IMG/VR virus record: IMGVR_UViG_3300048851_000095
Location: 1 to 58,717 of that record
Direction: 5' to 3' (one strand)
Length of the DNA stretch: 58,717 nt
DNA from: a virus
Lineage: Duplodnaviria > Caudoviricetes
The notes beneath the pieces are model-generated. The model saw only the letters and a list, made by a program, of their open reading frames with translations. It was not told the DNA's origin and did no database searches. Made by a program: the position numbers and the translations under genes. How positions within the stretch are numbered: position 1 is the first letter of the stretch; each line of letters begins with the position of its first letter. Below, in pieces: positions 2,600 through 23,752 of the stretch.

Positions 2600-3144
2600 T
2601 CGACTGCAACGAGTACGGGTTGGCGGCGCAGCTCCTCGCTGTGCTCGGCGCTGAGGTCGGCGTGACCCGCGGAGGTGCCGACGACCTGATCCAGATGGTT
2701 CATCCGGGTGGTCAGCCACCGATGTACGGGTGCGGTCTGATGTGGACGAGGGTTGTTGGTACGGCGGCTGATTCGGGTGCAGGTGCGTTGCAGCGACCGG
2801 TGCGGGATGGTGTGGTGCCGACGTGGCGGGTCGAGCTGGAGATGGGTGTGTACCGCTGCTATCCGGTCCCCGAGGGCCGGGACGTGATGCCTGAACCGGT
2901 GGTGCTGGACAGCGCCGCCCGAGATGCGTTCGACGATGCGGCAGCGATGCGCCGCGCGGCCGTGGCTGCGTTCCTCGACGAGGACGGTGACCCGGACCTG
3001 TCGGTGACGCCGATGGCGTGGCGGCCGGTATCCCCGATGGGCGGTGTCCATGGCGGTTTGATGACGGTGCGGGTGATGGCTGATTTATCGGGTCAGGGCC
3101 CGGATGATGGGTGGCCGATGTTGCCGGGTGACCCGCGCGCCTGA
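2596..3144 (+). CDS. Virion structural protein (head-tail connector/tail terminator-like)
   Basis: GTGA overlap with upstream gene; ELEMGVYRC and W.P..P.GG..GG motifs; synteny. Confidence 0.55.
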   Translation: MIDCNEYGLAAQLLAVLGAEVGVTRGGADDLIQMVHPGGQPPMYGCGLMWTRVVGTAADSGAGALQRPVRDGVVPTWRVELEMGVYRCYPVPEGRDVMPEPVVLDSAARDAFDDAAAMRRAAVAAFLDEDGDPDLSVTPMAWRPVSPMGGVHGGLMTVRVMADLSGQGPDDGWPMLPGDPRA

Positions 3145-3185
3145 CTTCATATGTCGGGGTAACGGTGGACTGTACCCTCGGTGTC

Positions 3186-3623
3186 ATGAGTGATGAAGAA
3201 GTGACAGTTCGTGCGACTCAGTCGATCGCCGGGTTCGTGGAGGGCGAGACGGTGACGCTCGTCCGGTCTCGGTTCGTGGACCGGCTGATCGCGCAGGAGA
3301 GTCTGGTCGTGGTCACGGACGGCCCGGTCGGGACGGTCGAGTCCGGGCTGATCAAGGTCGTCGAGGGCGACCCCAAGGACCCGGCTTACACAAACACCAG
3401 CCACCTCGGAGTCGAGGCCGATCATCCGTGGGTGGTTGACGGCAAAGTTGTTGTGCCGCCTCGCAACGGATCCCGCGAGCTGTGGGCCAACTTCCTGACC
3501 GCGGTGAAGTGGGCGTTTCCCGGAGAAGCAACACGCGACGCGCTGATCGCGATCTGGGACGAGCACGCCGACGACATCGACCTCGCCTACACAGCAACCA
3601 GCGAGACTCTCGATGGCGAGTAA
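3186..3623 (+). CDS. Hypothetical protein with C-terminal PxRNxSxExWAxF helical domain
   Basis: ORF in tail operon; domain shared with 55235..55615. Confidence 0.6.
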   Translation: MSDEEVTVRATQSIAGFVEGETVTLVRSRFVDRLIAQESLVVVTDGPVGTVESGLIKVVEGDPKDPAYTNTSHLGVEADHPWVVDGKVVVPPRNGSRELWANFLTAVKWAFPGEATRDALIAIWDEHADDIDLAYTATSETLDGE

Positions 3624-3894
3624 GCCGCAGCGGTTCCGCAAGCTGCCTGCCGAGATCGACGCGCTGCAGCTCACCCGCGACAACGTCGCCGAGGTCGAAG
3701 CCTTTATCAACGGCAAGGCCAAGGACGCAACACTCCCTGGGCCGGGCCGCGGCATCACTCATGGCGTCAAGATTCACACGCTCGAAGGCGACATGCTTGC
3801 CGCGTGGGGTGACTGGATCATCAAGGGCGTCGCGGGGGAGTTCTACCCGTGCAAGCCGGACATCTTCGCTGCGACCTACGAGGCGGTGACCTGA
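3613..3894 (+). CDS. Small conserved phage protein (PGDYG-like family)
   Basis: FRKLP.EIDA..IHTLEGDM.A..GDWIIKGV.GEFYPCKPDIF..TYE signature. Confidence 0.8.
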   Translation: MASKPQRFRKLPAEIDALQLTRDNVAEVEAFINGKAKDATLPGPGRGITHGVKIHTLEGDMLAAWGDWIIKGVAGEFYPCKPDIFAATYEAVT

Positions 3895-4343
3895 TGCCTG
3901 TCGAGATGCATCGCGACGTCATCGAGCGGGAGCTGGACCAGGCGGCAGAGAAGTGGGCACACAGAGTCGGCCGCCGAGTCACCACCGCAGCGAAGAAGAT
4001 CGTCTCCGCTGACGGACACGTCGACAGCGGCAGGATGCGCGCTGCCATCGACTACGCCGTTGATCGCACCGGACCCACCACCAAGCGAGTCATTGTCGGC
4101 TGCAGCGTCGACTACGCCAAGTACTTCCACACCGGCACCGGTATCCACGGCCCCGCCGGGCGGCCCATCGTCCCGCTGCGGCCACTCAACCCGGCCGGGC
4201 GGCCGTCGGCCCTGAAGTTCACACCGAAGGGCAGCAAAGACGCAATCTTCCGGCGCAGCGTGGCCGGTATGAAACCAGATCCGTTCCTCACCAAAGCGCT
4301 CGTCGAAGTCCTCGGCGACACCGGCACCATCCGCGAACTCTAG
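3894..4343 (+). CDS. HK97 gp10-like neck/tail completion protein
   Basis: VDSGRMRAAI, YAKYFHTGTG, PDPFLTKAL motifs. Confidence 0.7.
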   Translation: MPVEMHRDVIERELDQAAEKWAHRVGRRVTTAAKKIVSADGHVDSGRMRAAIDYAVDRTGPTTKRVIVGCSVDYAKYFHTGTGIHGPAGRPIVPLRPLNPAGRPSALKFTPKGSKDAIFRRSVAGMKPDPFLTKALVEVLGDTGTIREL

Positions 4344-8700: not shown

Positions 8701-10676
8701 CCGGATTCAACGGCATTGTCGAGTTCTTCAGAGGACTGCCTGAAACCATAAAGAGCTTCGCAGGCAACATCTTTTCGCCGATCTTCGACGCAGCAAAGGC
8801 TGTGTTCAACGGGATCGCTGATCTGTGGAACAACACCGCCGGCAAGCTGTCGTTCAAGGCACCGAAGTGGGTGCCCGGCATCGGCGGCAAGGGCTTCGAT
8901 ATGCCCGACATTCCGAAGATGCGCACAGGCGGTCTGGCCCGCGGGCCGGGGGGACCGACTGGCGACAAGATTCTGTCGTGGCTGTCGAACCGCGAGTTCG
9001 TCACCCGCGCGAAAGTTGTTGCCCAACGCGGTGCTCTGCCATTCCTGCAGGCGTTCAACTCCGGCCGCATCACCATGGACGACATCCGCCGCGGCCTTCC
9101 CGGCTTCGCTGCTGGCGGCCTCGCCGGCCGCGAACCGTACGGCCTACCGGCGGGCAGCAGCGGCAGCGACGTCTTCCCGCAGTGGGTGTACGACGTCGCC
9201 AGCCAGTTCAACCTCACCCCGTCGACGTATGCCGGGCATCAGGAGCGGGACGGCCAGAACAAGGGGATCGACTGGTCGGGGTCCGTCCCGGATATGCAGC
9301 GGTTCGCCGAGCACCTCGCGGGAATCTCGGGCGAGTTGGAGCAAGTCATCTGGATGAACCCGGAGACAGGTCAACAGATCGGTGTTGCGGACGGGCAGAT
9401 GGTCGGGCCGGGTACCGATCAGCCAGGCTACTACCGCGACGACTGGGCGGGTCACCAAGACCACGTCCACACCCGGCAGTCGTATGCGTTCGGTGGCGCG
9501 GCGAGCGACCCGAATAGCCCTGTCGAGGATCCGACCGGCGGTAGCTCGGCAAGCGCGCTCACAGCGAGTTCATCGAGCACACCGATCGGTTCAGGTATCG
9601 GTTCCGGCACGACCGGCGGGTCAGCGTCGTGGGGCAACTCCGGGGGCAGCAGCAAGTTCAACACCGCGGCGGATGCGAAAGCGAATGGCATCACACCGGT
9701 GTGGGTGGAGAACTGGCCGTCGACGATGGGCGGCGGGTCGAGCGACTCGGGAAGCTACACCAGCTCGGATACTGGCGGCGCCCTCACCGCGGATACGGGC
9801 GCACCGGCGTCGACGACGGACACGATCGCGCTCGTGCAGAATCCCGACGGCACGTACTCGGCTGTGGACCCTGAGTGGGACAAGCTGATCAAACGTGAGT
9901 CGGGCGGCCGCGCTGACATTGTGCAGGGCGTGCAAGACGCCAACTCTGGCGGGAACGAAGCGAGCGGACTATTCCAGATCGCAAAGGGAACGTGGGCGTC
10001 AAACGGCGGCACGAACTTCGCGCCGACCGCCGGCGAGGCGACGGCCGAGCAGCAGGCCGAGATCGCAGCGAAGATCTTCAACGCGCAGGGAGGCAGCCCG
10101 TGGGGCTCGGGTGCTGGGCAGAACCTTGGCCGCGAGAACGAGGAACTGCTACGCGCCGGTGTGCAGCGGGCGGGCAGTGTTCCTGTCACACCTGAGGGCA
10201 CGGTGCCCGTCACCATCACGGGCGCTGAGCTGCCCGCGAACAGTGACCCGAACGCGGCACCGCAGCTCGACTACACGCCGACCACGACAACCAATTCGGC
10301 ATCGATGCCGGACCCCAGCACCGCCACGACTCCGACCTCACCATCGTCGACGGACATGCCGTTCGGTCCCGATCGGGCCAACACGTGGCTGGGGGAGCAG
10401 GACTTCGCCGCGCAGGCCGGGACCTGGGCGACGGACGCGTCGAAGGAAATCCTCGGCCAGTTCGCCGAACCATTCGGCCTGTCCGGCTACGTCGACAAGG
10501 GAATCGACCAAGTCGTCGAATACCTCCGGCAGATGCTCGAGCAGCAGAGGAACCAGGCGCCCGGCGAGGTGAAGTTCGCCGACAGCGTGATCTTCAACGG
10601 CATGGACCCGCAGAAGACGAAGCAAGAGGCCATGTCGGGGATGACGCAGGTCACCGAAACCTTCAGGAGCGGATAG
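5715..10676 (+). CDS. Tape measure protein with C-terminal peptidoglycan hydrolase domains
   Basis: 1653 aa, Ala/Gly-rich amphipathic repeats; STYAGH..IDW..HQDHVH motif; Rpf/transglycosylase-like RESGG..GLFQI..TW..EQQ. Confidence 0.95.
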   Translation: MSSPWADARVEASLDYGNIDEELQQRLVRSTEIASKACQKHFRAIERAARTSATNTGQNWERAALRVSRAMETAETRGGKALAALALHGQKAAAKLRDSFDDAFDRILAKATSVLASVRAELRSLPNATVKLTVEFSKTQAEVAARAIHTHLRNFVRLVLGPIEFGVSLNDTAARARLTELTRTRTVRINTVTGSDRGSSGGGDVDRIGRSGRALSGITSMLGSIASGAGTAAKYLGIAGSAVVALGAATPAVAALAAVLASVGVAAGGAAIAGVSALALAVGTLKVGMSGVGDAFTALGAEATGGGGAAVDVAKQMADAQRTLTRAVRDEKDAQKDVSDARKDALERLEDYNLEAKGAALSEKDAVLSLKEAREDLAKGGFDNGTERERAALRVEQAEQRLAETRESNGDLESEIADARKKGVNGADEVVDANRRLEDATYAVRDAQYALNQVGKDSGSGIDKAAEALAKLSPHARDFVLAIRGVKPAWDEMKSGVQDSLFAGLADRIQPLANTYLPILGAAMTTVADGFNEGAISALNFAQSGTGISVMSTLLGESANMAGNLGSTLGNLVPGLAAIAAGAGQAFSPLTDGMAGVVRGWSDRMVELQQNGGMQAFFEKAMDVASQFGAVLSDIGGIISGVFNAANSAGSGLMGTLGQVLDQVNTFVNSVQGQEALTTFFSSMMTAVGAVLPVFMELASIVGTVVAPVIAQLATTLGPVLMQVASALGDRLRALAPAFGPVGDAIAAIGTALVPILPILGRLIGSFLELAGPIIGSLATALGPILEVIGNGLIAAFEALQPAIGPVTDVLMILSEVLSEYFTQYASVLVEIINGLVPVITTLATGFGELLTALLPVLPILGDALIQIITAVAPMIQEMAGVWLEVVQAILPLLPPLIQIVANLLPPLIELITALLPVTMMAAQVFAQLIVAIAPILTVLAQVIAKFSEVIAAVVSFSAQVIGTVVDFVGKVVGFFGGLVTQVTDKVGGVKDAVVTGFNGIVEFFRGLPETIKSFAGNIFSPIFDAAKAVFNGIADLWNNTAGKLSFKAPKWVPGIGGKGFDMPDIPKMRTGGLARGPGGPTGDKILSWLSNREFVTRAKVVAQRGALPFLQAFNSGRITMDDIRRGLPGFAAGGLAGREPYGLPAGSSGSDVFPQWVYDVASQFNLTPSTYAGHQERDGQNKGIDWSGSVPDMQRFAEHLAGISGELEQVIWMNPETGQQIGVADGQMVGPGTDQPGYYRDDWAGHQDHVHTRQSYAFGGAASDPNSPVEDPTGGSSASALTASSSSTPIGSGIGSGTTGGSASWGNSGGSSKFNTAADAKANGITPVWVENWPSTMGGGSSDSGSYTSSDTGGALTADTGAPASTTDTIALVQNPDGTYSAVDPEWDKLIKRESGGRADIVQGVQDANSGGNEASGLFQIAKGTWASNGGTNFAPTAGEATAEQQAEIAAKIFNAQGGSPWGSGAGQNLGRENEELLRAGVQRAGSVPVTPEGTVPVTITGAELPANSDPNAAPQLDYTPTTTTNSASMPDPSTATTPTSPSSTDMPFGPDRANTWLGEQDFAAQAGTWATDASKEILGQFAEPFGLSGYVDKGIDQVVEYLRQMLEQQRNQAPGEVKFADSVIFNGMDPQKTKQEAMSGMTQVTETFRSG

Positions 10677-18169: not shown

Positions 18170-18817
18170 ATGCTGATCGTTTGTGTCCGCGGCGCCGGCG
18201 AGCCGGTCACTGGCAACATGTGTTCCGGTGTCGTCCGTGGTTTCGACAACGTCGTCGAGTTGGTCTACCGCCCGGAGATCCGCCCCATCGGGATGCTCAG
18301 CTATGCCGAGTCGGTCGCCGGGTGCCGGGCAGCGTTGCGGCGCATCGACGAACAGGGCGAGGACTACATCATCGTGTGCTTCTCCCTCGGCGCCGCGGCG
18401 GCCGGCGACTTCGTCATGCTCGACCGCCCGAAACACTGCAAAGGGATCATCCTGCTCGCCGACCCACTCCGGGACCGCAAGCAGTGCTCGAACAAGGGCG
18501 TCCCAGCGAACCACTATGGTGTCGGCGGGGAGAGACTCATCACCGGTATTCCGGTGTTCTCGTTCGCGATTCCCGATGATCCGATCACCTCCTGCCCGGC
18601 CGACAACGGGCTCCGGGTGGTGTCGAGTGCTGTGACCGGCCGCAACCAGCCGCTCGCTGCGCGCTGCTACTGGGATGCGGTGTATACGTTCACGTGGCTA
18701 TGGAAGTACGCGGCCGCGGGCCGTCATGTTGCCTACGGCGCAGAACGGATGCCGGGCGATGGCCGTACCTACGTGCAGGCGGCGGCCGACGCGCTCCGGG
18801 CACTGGTGAAGTCCTAA
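18170..18817 (+). CDS. Lysin B-like cutinase-fold esterase
   Basis: VRGAGE, CFSLGA nucleophile elbow, LLADPLR, DPIT, terminal H-V-A-Y. Confidence 0.8.
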   Translation: MLIVCVRGAGEPVTGNMCSGVVRGFDNVVELVYRPEIRPIGMLSYAESVAGCRAALRRIDEQGEDYIIVCFSLGAAAAGDFVMLDRPKHCKGIILLADPLRDRKQCSNKGVPANHYGVGGERLITGIPVFSFAIPDDPITSCPADNGLRVVSSAVTGRNQPLAARCYWDAVYTFTWLWKYAAAGRHVAYGAERMPGDGRTYVQAAADALRALVKS

Positions 18818-18880
18818 GCGCAGACTCAGCATCCCACGCTAGGGTTACAGTGTGACCACATGTAACAGTGCAGGCGTGAA

Positions 18881-19783
18881 GTGAGCCGCGCATACGGCTG
18901 GACCTCCGACGGCGACATCATCGACACCGAAGCCGTCGAACTCCGGACCATGGCAGACCACATCGCCGACGGCGGATCCATGCGGAGCCTCGTCCAAGAC
19001 CTCGAAACCCGGGGCGTCGCAACAGTCACCGGAAAGCCGTGGGCGCCGATCACCGTTCGCCGCGCACTCACCAACCCCCGCATCATCGGAATGAAACTCG
19101 ACAAGGCCGGCGACCTCATCCCCGCGGACATCCCCCCGATCCTCGGGAAGCGAATCTACAACAAGGTCAACAAGATCCTCACCGACCCGGCCCGCGCGAA
19201 GTTCGCACCCCACGGCGGACGCTCGGACACCCTGATGCCTACCGGCATGGTCATCTGCGGCACCTGCGGATCCACGATGCACGCCTCCACCCGCGAAGGC
19301 CGGGCACCGGACTACGCCTGCTCATCGCGGGCCGGTGGATGTGGTGGTGTCGCGATCGCCGCGCACCTGCTGGACACCGAGGTGACTGAACGTGTGTTGG
19401 CGCGGCTGGCCAACAAGAGGAGCCGCGAGAAGTTGGCCCGCACCGCGACCCGCCCGGCGTCCGAGTACCAGCGGCAGATCGACCAAGCCCACGAACGGAT
19501 GGTCGTCCTCGCTGAAACGTTCGGTGGCGCCGACGGATACAAGCCCGCTCTCGACGCTGGGGTGGCAGCAGCCCGGAAGGTCATCGCCCAGGCCGAACGG
19601 GACCTACAGATCGTTCAGGCCGAGGGAATGCTGCCTCCGCCGTCGATCGACGAGATCGTCGACTGGTGGGAAGAAACACCGCGCGCGATCCGGCAGGAAG
19701 TGTTGACCCTGCTCGTCGACAAGGTGCAGGTGTTCTCCACCAAGGTCAACCCCGACGAACGGCTCAAGCTCCACTGGAAGTGA
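18881..19783 (+). CDS. Large serine recombinase C-terminal-only protein (recombinase + Zn ribbon + coiled coil; no catalytic domain)
   Basis: Begins at AYGW; W....VRRALTNPR..G; CGTCG..YACS...GC. Confidence 0.85.
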   Translation: MSRAYGWTSDGDIIDTEAVELRTMADHIADGGSMRSLVQDLETRGVATVTGKPWAPITVRRALTNPRIIGMKLDKAGDLIPADIPPILGKRIYNKVNKILTDPARAKFAPHGGRSDTLMPTGMVICGTCGSTMHASTREGRAPDYACSSRAGGCGGVAIAAHLLDTEVTERVLARLANKRSREKLARTATRPASEYQRQIDQAHERMVVLAETFGGADGYKPALDAGVAAARKVIAQAERDLQIVQAEGMLPPPSIDEIVDWWEETPRAIRQEVLTLLVDKVQVFSTKVNPDERLKLHWK

Positions 19784-19837
19784 CGCCGACGGGGGTGTCC
19801 CGGTTTTGAGCGGAGCCTTGAGGCGTTGACCTGCGGA

Positions 19838-19876
19838 AGTGACATTCCCCCGAAACGGTTTACTGCGAATGTCACT
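19838..19876. repeat. 10-bp inverted repeat; candidate att or recombinase-binding site
   Basis: AGTGACATTC-N19-GAATGTCACT in non-coding gap. Confidence 0.55.
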
Positions 19877-19970
19877 GGTTATATTTCGGCGATCCCGACC
19901 CAGTCGGTAAAAATTTCACCGCAGATGTAACACCTGCTTGTAAGTGGCGGGCGAACCGAAATCCCTGAAA

Positions 19971-20249
19971 CTAGTTTTCCCAAGGCGGCCGCGGCGGTAA
20001 AACCTCACCGTTCCGGTACGCCGCGTCGGCAGCTGCGCGGAGCCGGGCGTACTCCTGCTCCCGGTACCGGCGCCGGAACCACCACACCAGTCCGCCACCA
20101 ATGACAAGCACGAGCGGGATCGCGACGTACCAATAGGCACCGAAGAACCCGACGACGAACACCCCGGCCGCAAACAACGCCCACGGGTTCTTCCACCACA
20201 CCCGCTTCGGCGCCGACGGCAACAACCACGCTGGCTCGGTGGTAGTCAT
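19971..20249 (-). CDS. Small membrane protein
   Basis: Two hydrophobic segments; TGATG-coupled to lipoprotein gene. Confidence 0.7.
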   Translation of the reverse strand: MTTTEPAWLLPSAPKRVWWKNPWALFAAGVFVVGFFGAYWYVAIPLVLVIGGGLVWWFRRRYREQEYARLRAAADAAYRNGEVLPPRPPWEN

Positions 20250-20683
20250 CAGCATTCGCCCTGGGCGGCCATCCGCGCGCCCGTCGTGAACCGCTGCTGC
20301 TGGGCGGGCGACATCTGATCCCACTCGGGGCTGCTGCCGTCGGACGGTGCCTGAACGTCTTTCATGAAGTCCTCGAACTCGGCGTCAGCGTCATAGCTCT
20401 CAGTCTCGCGGGCAGGATCGAACAGCGGCTTGAGGCCGGCGCAAATCTCTTCGGCGGTGCCGGGTAGTTCGTCCGACCCAGCTTCCTCCGGAGTCGGTTC
20501 GACGGTCGCTGCAGCGGTCGTCGTGGTCGCGGGGAGAGAAGACGTCGTCGGTAGCGCGGTCGTCGTCGCGCTGGTTGCTGACGTGCTCGTCGTTGACGTG
20601 GCGTCCTCGGAGTCCGAGCAGGCTGTCCCAATCATCAATGCTCCAACTGTAATAGCGGTAAGGGCCAAGGACTTTGCCTGCAT
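20249..20683 (-). CDS. Lipoprotein
   Basis: Signal peptide ending IGTAC, Thr-rich linker, small Cys-containing domain. Confidence 0.8.
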   Translation of the reverse strand: MQAKSLALTAITVGALMIGTACSDSEDATSTTSTSATSATTTALPTTSSLPATTTTAAATVEPTPEEAGSDELPGTAEEICAGLKPLFDPARETESYDADAEFEDFMKDVQAPSDGSSPEWDQMSPAQQQRFTTGARMAAQGEC

Positions 20684-20808
20684 AATGTCTCCATCATCGG
20701 GTGCGGTTCCTCAGCATTCTGGTCGATTGGATGTGGCTTGGAAAGCCATGACAATCTGTTTTGAACTTTGTCGGGGACATTGTCGTATTCCGATAGTACT
20801 GTACGACC

Positions 20809-22200
20809 ATGCGAGCGATCATCTACTGCCGTGTTTCAAGCGACCCGAAGCAGCGCAGTAAGTCCGTCACCGAGCAGGAGACCGAGTGCCGGGCATTCGC
20901 AGCGGACCAGGGATGGGACATCGGCGAAGTCCTTATCGACAACGATCGCGGCGCCTCGAGGTACAGCCGCAAAGACCGACCCGCGTACCGGCGTCTCATG
21001 GAACTCCTCACCTCTGGTGATGTGCTCATCACGTGGGAGGCGTCCCGCGCGCAGCGCGACCTGAAGGCATATACCGAACTCCGCGATCTCTGCGCACAGC
21101 GCGGGGTGCTGTGGTGCTACTCAGGGCGCGTGTACGACCTGGAGCGTGGCGACGATCGGTTCACGACCGGGCTCGACGCGCTCCTCTCGGAGAAGGAAGT
21201 CGACCAAACCCGCGAACGAATTCTCCGCTCAGTCCGCGCGAACGCCGCCGCCGGAAGACCACACGGAAAGCTGCCGTACGGATACATGATTGTCCGCGAC
21301 CCCGACACCGGCGAAGCGATCGACCGCACACCCAACCCCACAACGGCACCGATATTCCGGGAGATCGTGACCCGCATCCTCGCCGGCGACGCAATCTACG
21401 GAATCGCGCAAGACTTGAACCGGCGTGGCGTGCCCGGGCCCAGACCGCGACGCGACGGCAGCCCAACGCCGTGGATACCGATGACGATCAAGAAGATGAT
21501 CGAATCACCGACCTACGCTGGCCTGCGTACACACAAAGGCGAGGTGATCGGTAAGGCGACGTGGGAGCCGCTGATCTCCCGCGACGATCACGAGCGGATC
21601 CTGGCCATCCTCGCTGATCCAACGCGGCGAACCCAACGCGGTTCCGAACCAACCTGGCTGCTGACCGGCATAGCAGTCTGCGGGGAATGCGGCGCCACAG
21701 TGCGCCGGATCAAGAACCGCGGCTACCAGACGTATTCGTGCTCGAAAGGATTTTGCGTCGCACGAGTAGTGCGAGCCGTCGACCCCTACGTCACCGAGCA
21801 TGTGCTCCGGCGCCTCGAAGGGCAGGACCTGCTGATCAACCTCGGTGGGGAGGACGCTGACCTGTCGGCGGCTCTCAGTGAGTTGACTGCCCTTCGCCAG
21901 CGACTCGACGCGTTCACGGACTCCGCCGCCGAGGGCGAGACGTCACCGGCCGCCTTGGCTCGGATCGAGGCTCGGTTGCGGCCACAGATCGCAGCAGCGG
22001 AAGCGAAGGTGCGACAACACCAGAAGTCACCGTTGATCGCCCGGATCGCCGGCCCTCAAGCGCGTGAGCACTGGGACGCGTTGCCGATGCGGGAGCGCCG
22101 GGACGTTGTACGGGAGTTCGTGACGGTGCGGATCTTGAAGATCCCGAAACGGCAACGCACCGTGCCGGGGCCGGAGTCTATTGAGTTCGTGTGGAAATGA
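20809..22200 (+). CDS. int: Large serine integrase
   Basis: YCRVS catalytic motif, SRAQR, PYGY, recombinase domain, CGECG Zn ribbon. Confidence 0.95.
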   Translation: MRAIIYCRVSSDPKQRSKSVTEQETECRAFAADQGWDIGEVLIDNDRGASRYSRKDRPAYRRLMELLTSGDVLITWEASRAQRDLKAYTELRDLCAQRGVLWCYSGRVYDLERGDDRFTTGLDALLSEKEVDQTRERILRSVRANAAAGRPHGKLPYGYMIVRDPDTGEAIDRTPNPTTAPIFREIVTRILAGDAIYGIAQDLNRRGVPGPRPRRDGSPTPWIPMTIKKMIESPTYAGLRTHKGEVIGKATWEPLISRDDHERILAILADPTRRTQRGSEPTWLLTGIAVCGECGATVRRIKNRGYQTYSCSKGFCVARVVRAVDPYVTEHVLRRLEGQDLLINLGGEDADLSAALSELTALRQRLDAFTDSAAEGETSPAALARIEARLRPQIAAAEAKVRQHQKSPLIARIAGPQAREHWDALPMRERRDVVREFVTVRILKIPKRQRTVPGPESIEFVWK

Positions 22201-22423
22201 CCGTCGTGCGTTGACGAGCTTGCGCGCGGCGCGCCCGCATCCGGCGTAACCGCTTCACCGTCATCGGGTCGATCGCCATCGCCTCGGGCAGGTCGATGAT
22301 CTGGTTGAGCCGCTGGTAGTAGCGGACCACCGACACCTCGAACCGGCGAACGATCTCGGCTTCTTTGTTCCCGCGGTGCTGCCACCACGACCGCTCGAAA
22401 TCGAGTACCTCAGTGAGTTCCAT
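22178..22423 (-). CDS. DUF3263-family protein
   Basis: LDFERSWW...GNKE..I...F..S..RYYQRLN.IID.P.A...DP..V.RLRR. Confidence 0.85.
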   Translation of the reverse strand: MELTEVLDFERSWWQHRGNKEAEIVRRFEVSVVRYYQRLNQIIDLPEAMAIDPMTVKRLRRMRARRAQARQRTTVISTRTQ

Positions 22424-22883
22424 GGATGTGCCTTTCGGGGTAGATCCAGTCGCCATCGAGCTGGTGCTCGAGCTCGGCCACCTCGATTGGGTTGAGGTTG
22501 TTGATACGTGTCGCGAGGACGTCAACGGTGACCCACAGGTCTTCGGCCAACTCGTCGGGATCGGGGTGACGGTTCCACCGGAGCGCGTGCAGCAGCTCAT
22601 CGAATGGGATCAGCTGCAGGGCGGTGCACTTTTCAACGACCGCCTCCTCCGAGAGATCGATCGGAAATATGCCACGCACGTAGTGGATGAGCTCGTGAGT
22701 CAACGCGCACCGGCGTTGCACCTGGTTCAGGCTGCAACAGATCCAGATCGTCGTGCCTGCCAACAGGCCGTGGATGCCATTCGGCAGACGGTGCGTGGTG
22801 ATGACCTGAACCTCGGGGTAGTGCTCACGCAAGATGCGCCAAGGGTGCCACCGGCGGCGGCTTGGCAAGAGTTCCGTATCCAT
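22410..22883 (-). CDS. ImmA/IrrE-family metallopeptidase (anti-repressor)
   Basis: RRCALTHELIH (HExxH), downstream E, LAEDLWV; start uncertain. Confidence 0.85.
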   Translation of the reverse strand: MDTELLPSRRRWHPWRILREHYPEVQVITTHRLPNGIHGLLAGTTIWICCSLNQVQRRCALTHELIHYVRGIFPIDLSEEAVVEKCTALQLIPFDELLHALRWNRHPDPDELAEDLWVTVDVLATRINNLNPIEVAELEHQLDGDWIYPERHIHGTH

Positions 22884-22943
22884 GCCGAGAGTTGTATCGG
22901 CAAGGACTGACAAGCCCATGTGCGGCAATGAATTACATGATTG

Positions 22944-23363
22944 TCATTTATCCATTAGCTCTAGCAGGGTGTTGTCGCCGAGGCGGAAGTTCTCGAGCAG
23001 GGTTGAACGTGCCTCAAGACCGTAAAACGGGACGTCGGCGCCGATGATCCCGGCCGCATCAACGAGTATTGCTGAGGCACAGTTCAGCACCTGAGGAATC
23101 CCGGTCTCTTCTACGAATGCGTCGAGGTCATCACCTTCCTCGATCCTCCGATCCCAGAAGTACAGGACAGCAACATCGACTACCAACGAGCCGTCGCGCG
23201 TCTCCTCCTCGATCCGAATTCGGACGCCGAGTTTGTCAGGTTGCACATTGAACGACAGCTGAAAGTCTGTCTCCGGCAGCTCTTCTTCGGTGTTTTCATG
23301 GTGGTGCCGCCCATGTTTTTCGAAGATCGTCAACAGCGTGTCATCGACCTCGGGGATACTCAT
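22944..23363 (-). CDS. SecB-like chaperone (TAC system)
   Basis: 139 aa acidic protein, beta strands then DAFVEETG helix; TGATG-coupled to antitoxin. Confidence 0.6.
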   Translation of the reverse strand: MSIPEVDDTLLTIFEKHGRHHHENTEEELPETDFQLSFNVQPDKLGVRIRIEEETRDGSLVVDVAVLYFWDRRIEEGDDLDAFVEETGIPQVLNCASAILVDAAGIIGADVPFYGLEARSTLLENFRLGDNTLLELMDK

Positions 23364-23752
23364 CAGACGGTTGACCAATACCCAATCGGACCAATTACCT
23401 TCGCTGATGCGTTGGTTGACGGCCGCTTTCGATACGAGACCGTGATTGTGACCGGGCCTTCGTCGGGCCACTGATCGTAGTCAGTCACCTTTGTCTCGAT
23501 CCACGCTCCCACGGCAGCTGCGTAACGACGAATTGTGGACAGGTGCGGATCGGATCCTAGATTCTCAAAATTCGACACGGCGGTCTTGGAGCGATTCATA
23601 CGAACCGCAACTTCTTCCTGCTTTAACCTTTTGCTCTTGCGCATGGCGACAAGGTCTTCCAGCAACCGGTCGTCGTTTGCTGCAAGGTGTTCGCGAAGTT
23701 CGCCATACGGATCCGCCGCTAGGTCGGCCTCCAACGCTTCGATGGGGTTCAT
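23363..23752 (-). CDS. HigA-like XRE antitoxin with C-terminal extension
   Basis: LKQEEVAVRMNRSKTAVSNFE...DPHLSTIRRYAAAVG HTH plus ~40-aa tail. Confidence 0.8.
   Translation of the reverse strand: MNPIEALEADLAADPYGELREHLAANDDRLLEDLVAMRKSKRLKQEEVAVRMNRSKTAVSNFENLGSDPHLSTIRRYAAAVGAWIETKVTDYDQWPDEGPVTITVSYRKRPSTNASAKVIGPIGYWSTV

Follow-up and report, generated by a model that had tools for sequence, protein, structure and literature searches.

In large serine recombinases (LSRs), the C-terminal part consists of a recombinase domain (RD) and a zinc-ribbon domain (ZD), which bind one att half-site, and of a coiled coil that pairs the subunits. Reduced versions of mobile-element enzymes also occur: DNA-binding-only derivatives of transposases, such as InsA of IS1, regulate or inhibit their parent enzyme. 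The known recombination directionality factors (RDFs) of serine integrases –Bxb1 gp47, PhiC31 gp3, and SPbeta SprB– are unrelated small proteins and are not known to derive from recombinases.

The closest described relatives of the gene studied here are gp44 of phage Wizard and gp47 of phage Twister6. In the passages of Pope et al. (2017; PMC5559632) that deal with these phages, both copies are judged likely defective and predicted to be non-functional, and Wizard-type phages are described as carrying a tyrosine integrase. Full-text literature searches outside supplementary files, and passages of a 2026 survey of Rhodococcus phages (PMC13313380), yielded no functional study of such proteins. 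The existence of the gene is already known; what is new here is its conservation, the selection acting on it, the breadth of its family, and its independence from serine integrases. Genes of this kind are routinely annotated as 'serine integrase' or 'integrase', which can mislead calls of integrase type and the hunt for att sites.

We analysed a 58,717-nt stretch of DNA from a virus of the Caudoviricetes (IMG/VR record IMGVR_UViG_3300048851_000095), called the window below. A lysB-like ORF (PHROG 102 'endolysin', E 5.6e-33) ends at 18817 and, after a gap of 63 bp, a gene at 18881-19783 (+) runs from a GTG start to a TGA stop and encodes 300 aa. An in-frame TAA at 18863-18865, 18 nt before the GTG, closes the frame upstream. 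The ORF list, the Pfam matches and a family of homologues of ~300 aa all support this gene, which encodes the C-terminal domains of an LSR with no catalytic domain (CTD-only gene). Its product begins with MSRAYGW. The original prediction had given the feature as 18842-19783; the 300-aa ORF starting at the boundary motif stands, while coding begins at 18881 and the 18842 side belongs to an upstream repeat.

Pfam detected two domains in the 300-aa protein: PF07508 (Recombinase) over residues 17-101 (E 1.1e-11, 45.3 bits with a threshold of 21.1) and PF13408 (Zn_ribbon_recom) over residues 121-172 (E 1.6e-08, 35.3 bits with a threshold of 25.3). Together with the invariant columns of an alignment of 19 sequences (A1) and the helices of the structural model (15-29, 34-43, 56-69, and 90-106), the first match places the RD at residues 1-105 (18881-19195, +); it starts with the invariant R3, Y5, and G6 and holds the helix motif W54..R61.L63..P66 R67..G70. 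The ZD follows at residues 121-178 (19241-19414, +), with cysteines at 126, 129, 147, and 154. Residues 179-250 (19415-19630, +) form a predicted coiled-coil arm, delimited from the model helices, from the retention of the segment in 42 clade members, and from fold matches to LSR structures. The tail, residues 251-300 (19631-19780, +), has the A1-invariant W262, R294, and W299 and ends in ..HWK.

The AlphaFold2 model, built with 19 homologues in the alignment, reached a mean pLDDT of 81. In it, the RD is helical and the ZD a beta-ribbon; residues 179-247 form a long hairpin of helices (predicted coiled-coil helices 179-190, 193-214, and 221-247), and a small C-terminal unit follows. Foldseek against the PDB gave 26 matches at E<=0.001, and all the matches listed, down to E 6.4e-03, are LSRs; they include PhiC31, Bxb1, an RDF-bound serine integrase, and the C-terminal domain of the LI integrase (4KIS). 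The TM-scores against these structures are low, at 0.3, since the domains are oriented differently to each other. The domain order of RD, four-Cys zinc ribbon, coiled coil, and ..WK end that had been read from the sequence is in agreement with Pfam, the cysteine positions, and the AlphaFold2 prediction. Other collections added little on the protein: NCBIfam returned sub-threshold XisF and CcrB matches only, PHROGs gave phrog_95 'integrase' only, and no family of PADLOC-DB matched at E<=0.01.

PF00239, the N-terminal resolvase catalytic domain that bears the nucleophilic serine and defines the serine integrase class, is absent from the 300-aa protein in Pfam. When all six frames of the entire 58.7-kb record were searched for PF00239, there was a single match, at 20815-21258, in the integrase gene downstream. 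This leaves neither a catalytic remnant nor a separately encoded catalytic domain in the record, and the earlier claim that no remnant lies in the 63 bp after lysB holds for the whole record. We also considered, and ruled out, that the gene is split or that the phage provides a catalytic domain in trans: the window has no other PF00239, and five provirus or virus records that carry the gene have none. Going by its domain content, the protein is not expected to be able to recombine attP with attB.

The closest homologues of the protein match at E 1e-60 to 1e-150, which excludes a chance match. Its identity is 40-45% with a group of ~300-aa proteins and 76% with a single metagenomic protein. Among the 30 proteins at E<=1e-10, 26 are 269-326 aa long with no PF00239 in their precomputed Pfam annotation, and they come from Gordonia Wizardvirus phages and from genomes of Prescottella equi, Rhodococcus, and Rhodococcoides; the other four are full-length (473-503 aa) and only 28-32% identical. 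Members of the clade have ~300 aa and an N terminus of the form M(S)R(A/P)(Y/F)G(W/Y/F). All 19 sequences of A1 have R-x-Y-G at the same N-terminal boundary, their M(S)RAYGW start hardly varies, and R3, Y5, G6, W54, R61, L63, P66, R67, G70, C126, C129, C154, W262, R294, and W299 are invariant among them. Two A1 members lack the third cysteine, and PF13408 falls below detection in the precomputed Pfam annotation of Wizard-type members. Searched against genome contigs, the single protein found no relative and a narrower alignment (A2) found four loci. A search of sequencing runs listed one DNA data set that contains it and no RNA data set.

A profile search covered 1.84 billion representatives, and its best 150 matches are a mix of ~300-aa proteins, aligned from profile position 1-3, and 450-500-aa enzymes, aligned from about residue 160. 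After nine fragments were excluded, 171 usable sequences were classed as 75 short, 81 full-length, and 15 ambiguous. The short class was defined by a length of ~280-330 aa and a start at most 8 residues from R-x-(Y/F)-G-(W/Y/F), and the window protein belongs to it. On a FastTree phylogeny of the common region, the window protein falls in a clade of 55 rows (53 short ones and two whose starts were mis-called upstream) with a support of 96. Among the full-length enzymes there are a further clade of short proteins only (15 rows, support 98) and a few isolated short sequences. In an IQ-TREE analysis of an 82-row subsample, a branch with SH-aLRT 95 sets 33 of 33 main-clade rows apart, and the window integrase lies outside this group. 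The main clade is deep, with terminal branches of ~0.5-1 substitutions per site. Both trees are unrooted; the short clade can be read as derived only on the assumption of a loss, rather than a gain, of the catalytic domain.

The comparator within the window is a full-length large serine integrase of 463 aa at 20809-22200 (+), with PF00239, PF07508, and PF13408. It resembles the 300-aa protein in its RD, its ZD, its four-Cys pattern, and its ending (..LHWK and ..FVWK, with WK common to both), and its own boundary motif is PYGY at residue 156. It differs in having a catalytic domain, in an identity of only 29% over 180 aa, and in its place among the full-length enzymes in both trees, apart from the 300-aa protein. 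The original prediction had taken the CTD-only gene for a paralog of this integrase; with such an identity and different tree regions, it is no copy of its neighbour. Of the 75 short relatives 65, and of the 81 full-length ones 66, have a tryptophan among their last four residues, and the ..W(K) end appears from these counts to be an ancestral trait of the recombinase subfamily. Being that common in full-length enzymes, the shared tail is no sign of pairing between the two proteins.

The position of the gene is constant. In every locus examined (the window, Halo3, Clown, and the IMG/VR loci L004-L023) it comes behind the lysis cassette as the final rightward gene, and leftward genes follow. 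In Halo3 and Clown, these are a hypothetical gene, a tyrosine integrase, and an immunity repressor. Four of the ten neighbouring proteins scanned were adjoining tyrosine integrases (L004, L005, L021, and L023) and the other six were no integrases. PF00239 was found in none of the five provirus or virus records carrying the gene, and all five have one PF00589 integrase each, at the opposite end. The window phage is therefore the exception with its full serine integrase, since wherever the other carriers were checked the integrase is a tyrosine one.

In a tblastn comparison of the window with four other carriers, the ORFs that match in all four are those of the virion and lysis blocks and, outside them, only the CTD-only gene and the integrase, whose matches fall on the CTD-only genes of the other carriers. 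JKSyngboy, a related 58-kb Gordonia phage of lytic type, has no integrase, no repressor, and no CTD-only gene, and its lysB leads directly to RecE. Its lack of the gene, together with the tyrosine integrases of the carriers, indicates that the gene goes with a temperate life style and not with serine integrases. At a locus of Rhodococcoides trifolii (L049), a tRNA-Met lies ~770 bp downstream of the gene and is followed by ORFs of 764 and 727 aa; these would be host genes, which would place the gene near the end of a prophage.

Among the loci fetched with a profile of the second catalytic-domain-less clade, three hold a recombinase-like gene directly upstream of a ParB-like gene (L054, 8001-8960 with 9532-10647; L056, 8001-8966 with 9497-10621; L051, 1573-2505 with 2820-4178), a setting unlike that of the main clade. 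No resolvase domain was detected in the recombinase-like genes of L054 and L051, and the ParB-like genes of the three loci are either ParB_N with HTH_ParB or ParB_N with a DNA methylase. Two further loci from the same search (L052 and L053) encode full-length enzymes.

These contexts bear on what the 300-aa protein might do for the integrase next to it. A role as RDF or heteromeric partner, proposed from the window, fails as the general function of the family: a family that is kept with tyrosine integrases only, and with no PF00239 in the five proviruses, cannot generally serve a resident serine integrase. In the window phage alone, the protein could still work with the adjacent enzyme as a dead heteromeric or coiled-coil partner, as a competitor for att sites, or as a directionality factor that alters coiled-coil pairing on attL and attR. 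The two genes lie ~1 kb apart in the lysogeny region, both products have RD, ZD, coiled coil, and ..WK tail, and an att-like palindrome of 39 bp lies between them. Against this, the proteins are distant in identity and in the trees, the ..W tail is ancestral, and selection keeps the gene where there is no serine integrase at all (the five proviruses, Halo3, Clown, L004, L005, L021, and L023). We regard such a local partnership as unlikely.

The palindrome itself, at 19838-19876, was found by a repeat search as two 19-nt arms, 79% complementary and 1 nt apart, with outer arms AGTGACATTC...GAATGTCACT. It is imperfect and lies 55 bp after the stop codon of the CTD-only gene, before the leftward genes. 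Its size and symmetry resemble those of a serine-integrase attP such as the sites of PhiC31 and Bxb1. It may be the attP site of the adjacent serine integrase or, equally, a hairpin at the junction of convergent genes. A strong RNA hairpin was considered and rejected, because the fold of 19784-19900 is no better than that of shuffled sequences (z 0.28). Palindromes downstream of the gene in other loci have no sequence in common with this one and mostly look like GC-rich terminator hairpins.

Two leftward genes, 19971-20324 (-) and 20249-20683 (-), sit in a moron-like position between the CTD-only gene and the integrase. They encode a small membrane-like protein and a protein with a Thr/Ala-rich region and a lipoprotein-like signal (..GTACSDS..), and neither has a family match in PHROGs or PADLOC. 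Beyond the integrase, a metalloprotease-like gene at 22410-22928 (-; phrog_87, HELIH motif) lies close to a gene for an XRE-type HTH regulator at 23363-23752 (-; phrog_1373). The two look like a protease-repressor immunity pair of the ImmA/ImmR style.

Upstream of the CTD-only gene there is a promoter- or operator-like element at 18844-18870 (+), recognised from its sequence, its enrichment, and its equivalents upstream of homologues. It holds the dyad GTTACA-N11-TGTAAC, with arms at 18844-18849 and 18861-18866, a TACAGT hexamer at 18846-18851, and a second copy, AACAGTG, at 18864-18870. TWACAGTK occurs seven times in the window against 0.97 expected, and none of 100 shuffles reached seven. 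Intergenic (G)GT(T/A)ACAGT elements on the + strand, at 18846, 31724, 40125, 45099, and 52392, often come with a GGTTAC...GTAACC dyad and lie upstream of rightward gene blocks; they are likely the promoters or operators of the window phage. Upstream of the gene, equivalents with two or three (T/A/G)ACAGT cores are present in the cluster-DC phages and in three Rhodococcus-type groups, and these elements are far better conserved than synonymous positions in the neighbouring coding sequence.

An element of this type also follows the terminase gene closely in the window, in Halo3, and in four further genomes (G001, G003, G004, and G006). JKSyngboy, which lacks the CTD-only gene and likewise has a similar site behind its terminase gene, carries the element as GGCTACAGT-N6-ATG, with the geometry of a leaderless -10 promoter of actinobacteria. 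A scan for consensus sigma-70 promoters over 18400-20900 found none; it needs a -35 hexamer, which the TACAGT elements lack.

The original prediction had seen in this inverted repeat the gene's own; the repeat is real, and it is not private to the gene. We rejected the dyad as the protein's own operator on the grounds that the element recurs elsewhere in the window and in JKSyngboy. Its presence at other sites and in a phage that lacks the gene points to a promoter element of a generic -10 type, which may include an operator; it is no evidence for autoregulation. No DNA site specific to the 300-aa protein was found, as the conserved upstream element also stands where the gene is absent. We conclude that the CTD-only gene has its own promoter-like element, of a type that these phages use generally and that may include an operator.

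Two arrangements around this element differ between groups. In Halo3 (L001, 3700-3960) and Clown (L057, 4519-4995), a small hypothetical gene lies between the post-lysB element and the CTD-only gene and would be co-transcribed with it. In the Rhodococcus-type proviruses L014-L020, a GC-rich hairpin, gaggggcgggacc...ggtctcgcccc then tttc, lies ~40-95 nt upstream of the gene, between the lysis cassette and the gene's promoter-like element. This hairpin suggests that the CTD-only gene is a separate transcription unit there.

Constraint can also be compared between the parts of the protein. Mean pairwise identities were computed for 42 main-clade short rows and 81 full-length rows, and they were 42.7 versus 39.7% for the RD, 36.7 versus 35.5% for the ZD, 26.8 versus 23.5% for the coiled coil, and 35.3 versus 31.8% for the tail. 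The coiled-coil segment is hardly ever deleted (0.9% gaps in the 42 clade members). With domain identities near those of full-length enzymes, all parts of the C-terminal module appear to be constrained about as they are in active enzymes.

Such constraint would suit a second role, in which the protein is a decoy that gives immunity against integration: it would occupy attB or attP, or trap the coiled coil of rival serine integrases, and so block their establishment. Phages that themselves lack a serine integrase retain the gene, it lies at the boundary between lysis cassette and lysogeny module, and action against rival elements would explain its distribution in phages with tyrosine integrases. 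The PADLOC search gave no match in its favour, though, the promoter-like element resembles those before the early and virion blocks and bears no lysogen-specific sign, and neither a target site nor a target integrase was identified. We hold this role to be distinctly improbable.

Conservation and selection decide the last alternative. The ORF is intact in 21 of 21 DNA loci (20 from IMG/VR and Halo3), with 298-317 codons and a start at the boundary motif, and a purine-rich ribosome-binding stretch precedes it in the IMG/VR loci L004-L008 and L010-L023. By the Nei-Gojobori method, dN/dS is 0.01-0.2 for most pairs: 0.012-0.052 among L015-L020 (dS 0.15-0.28), with the lowest value, 0.012, at a dS of 0.25; 0.04-0.19 among L010-L013 (dS 0.63-0.77); and 0.06-0.12 for close cluster-DC pairs. 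Some pairs show relaxed constraint, with 0.26-0.39 for L004 versus other DC phages and 0.51-0.52 for L021 versus L022 and L023. The ORF maps gave no suggestion of an overlapping gene in another frame or strand behind the low values. A check of truncation and dN/dS in homologs, called for by the original prediction, thus came out in favour of a maintained gene, and its 'domesticated DNA-binding module' is borne out by the conserved truncation and the purifying selection, with DNA binding itself being what we infer from the domains. That the protein is a non-functional serine integrase remnant, as predicted for Wizard gp44 and Twister6 gp47 in the passages of Pope et al. (2017; PMC5559632) on these phages, accords with the lack of a catalytic domain and hence of DNA recombination, yet it is very improbable in view of the intact frames with one start, the dN/dS down to 0.012, the deep all-short clade with its long terminal branches, and the conserved zinc ligands and RD motifs. 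The selection data contradict the defective-remnant view as those passages give it.

Judged on these sequences, the CTD-only protein is a working, non-catalytic protein under purifying selection and not in decay, and it probably has a DNA-binding task of its own. The gene is no debris: it belongs to a family of the Wizard gp44 type that is old, widespread, and maintained by selection.

We lean, at a little better than an even chance, towards a functional, non-catalytic descendant of an LSR that binds a specific site, pairs through its coiled coil, and acts as a blocker or regulator linked to lysogeny. On this reading of a functional descendant, the resolvase domain would have been lost long ago while RD, zinc ribbon, and coiled coil were kept. 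Temperate phages of Gordonia, Rhodococcus, and their relatives carry the family behind the lysis genes, where these border on the lysogeny module, whichever type of integrase the phage has. The protein would be unable to cut DNA and would bind a specific site of ~20-25 bp in the manner of an LSR C-terminal domain. Its coiled coil would join it to another DNA-bound copy of itself or to a different protein with a coiled coil, and the protein would thereby block or regulate a specific site in connection with temperate growth.

More speculatively, free-standing proteins of RD, zinc ribbon, and coiled coil might be an unrecognised class of site-specific DNA-binding phage 'integrase decoys', which temperate phages would keep to act against rival serine integrases by occupying att sites or trapping coiled coils or, in phages like the window phage, to tune their own integrase; with all-short clades of 55 and 15 rows, such a class would have arisen at least twice. 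We offer this as a long shot. The analysis defines a sizeable natural family of stand-alone LSR DNA-binding modules. Should its target and coiled-coil partner be found, the family could bring to light a further level of lysogeny control or competition, and it could supply natural, compact, sequence-specific DNA-binding scaffolds that are kin of genome-engineering enzymes.

Compared with known systems, the nearest are Wizard gp44, Twister6 gp47, and the ~298-aa products annotated as 'serine integrase' in Gordonia phages of Wizardvirus and Clownvirus, which are 40-43% identical to the window protein over residues 3-299, start at the same N-terminal boundary, follow lysB in the same way, and belong to the all-short clade. 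The difference lies in the resident enzyme, since these phages have a tyrosine integrase and the window phage a full serine integrase. The RDFs of serine integrases would be alike in their target, the coiled-coil and ZD region of the integrase, if the partnership with the adjacent integrase were true; however, the CTD-only family does not co-occur with serine integrases in the five proviruses. InsA-type derivatives of IS1 offer a parallel as mobile-element enzymes reduced to their DNA-binding part, but they act on an adjacent cognate enzyme, which is missing from most phages that host the CTD-only gene. Finally, the closest structural counterparts are the C-terminal domains of LSRs –the Listeria LI integrase bound to an attP half-site (4KIS) and the PhiC31, Bxb1, and SPbeta cryo-EM structures–, which have the same succession of RD, ZD, and coiled coil by Pfam and by fold. 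There they are parts of enzymes with an N-terminal resolvase domain, whereas here the module is a free-standing product with its own start codon.
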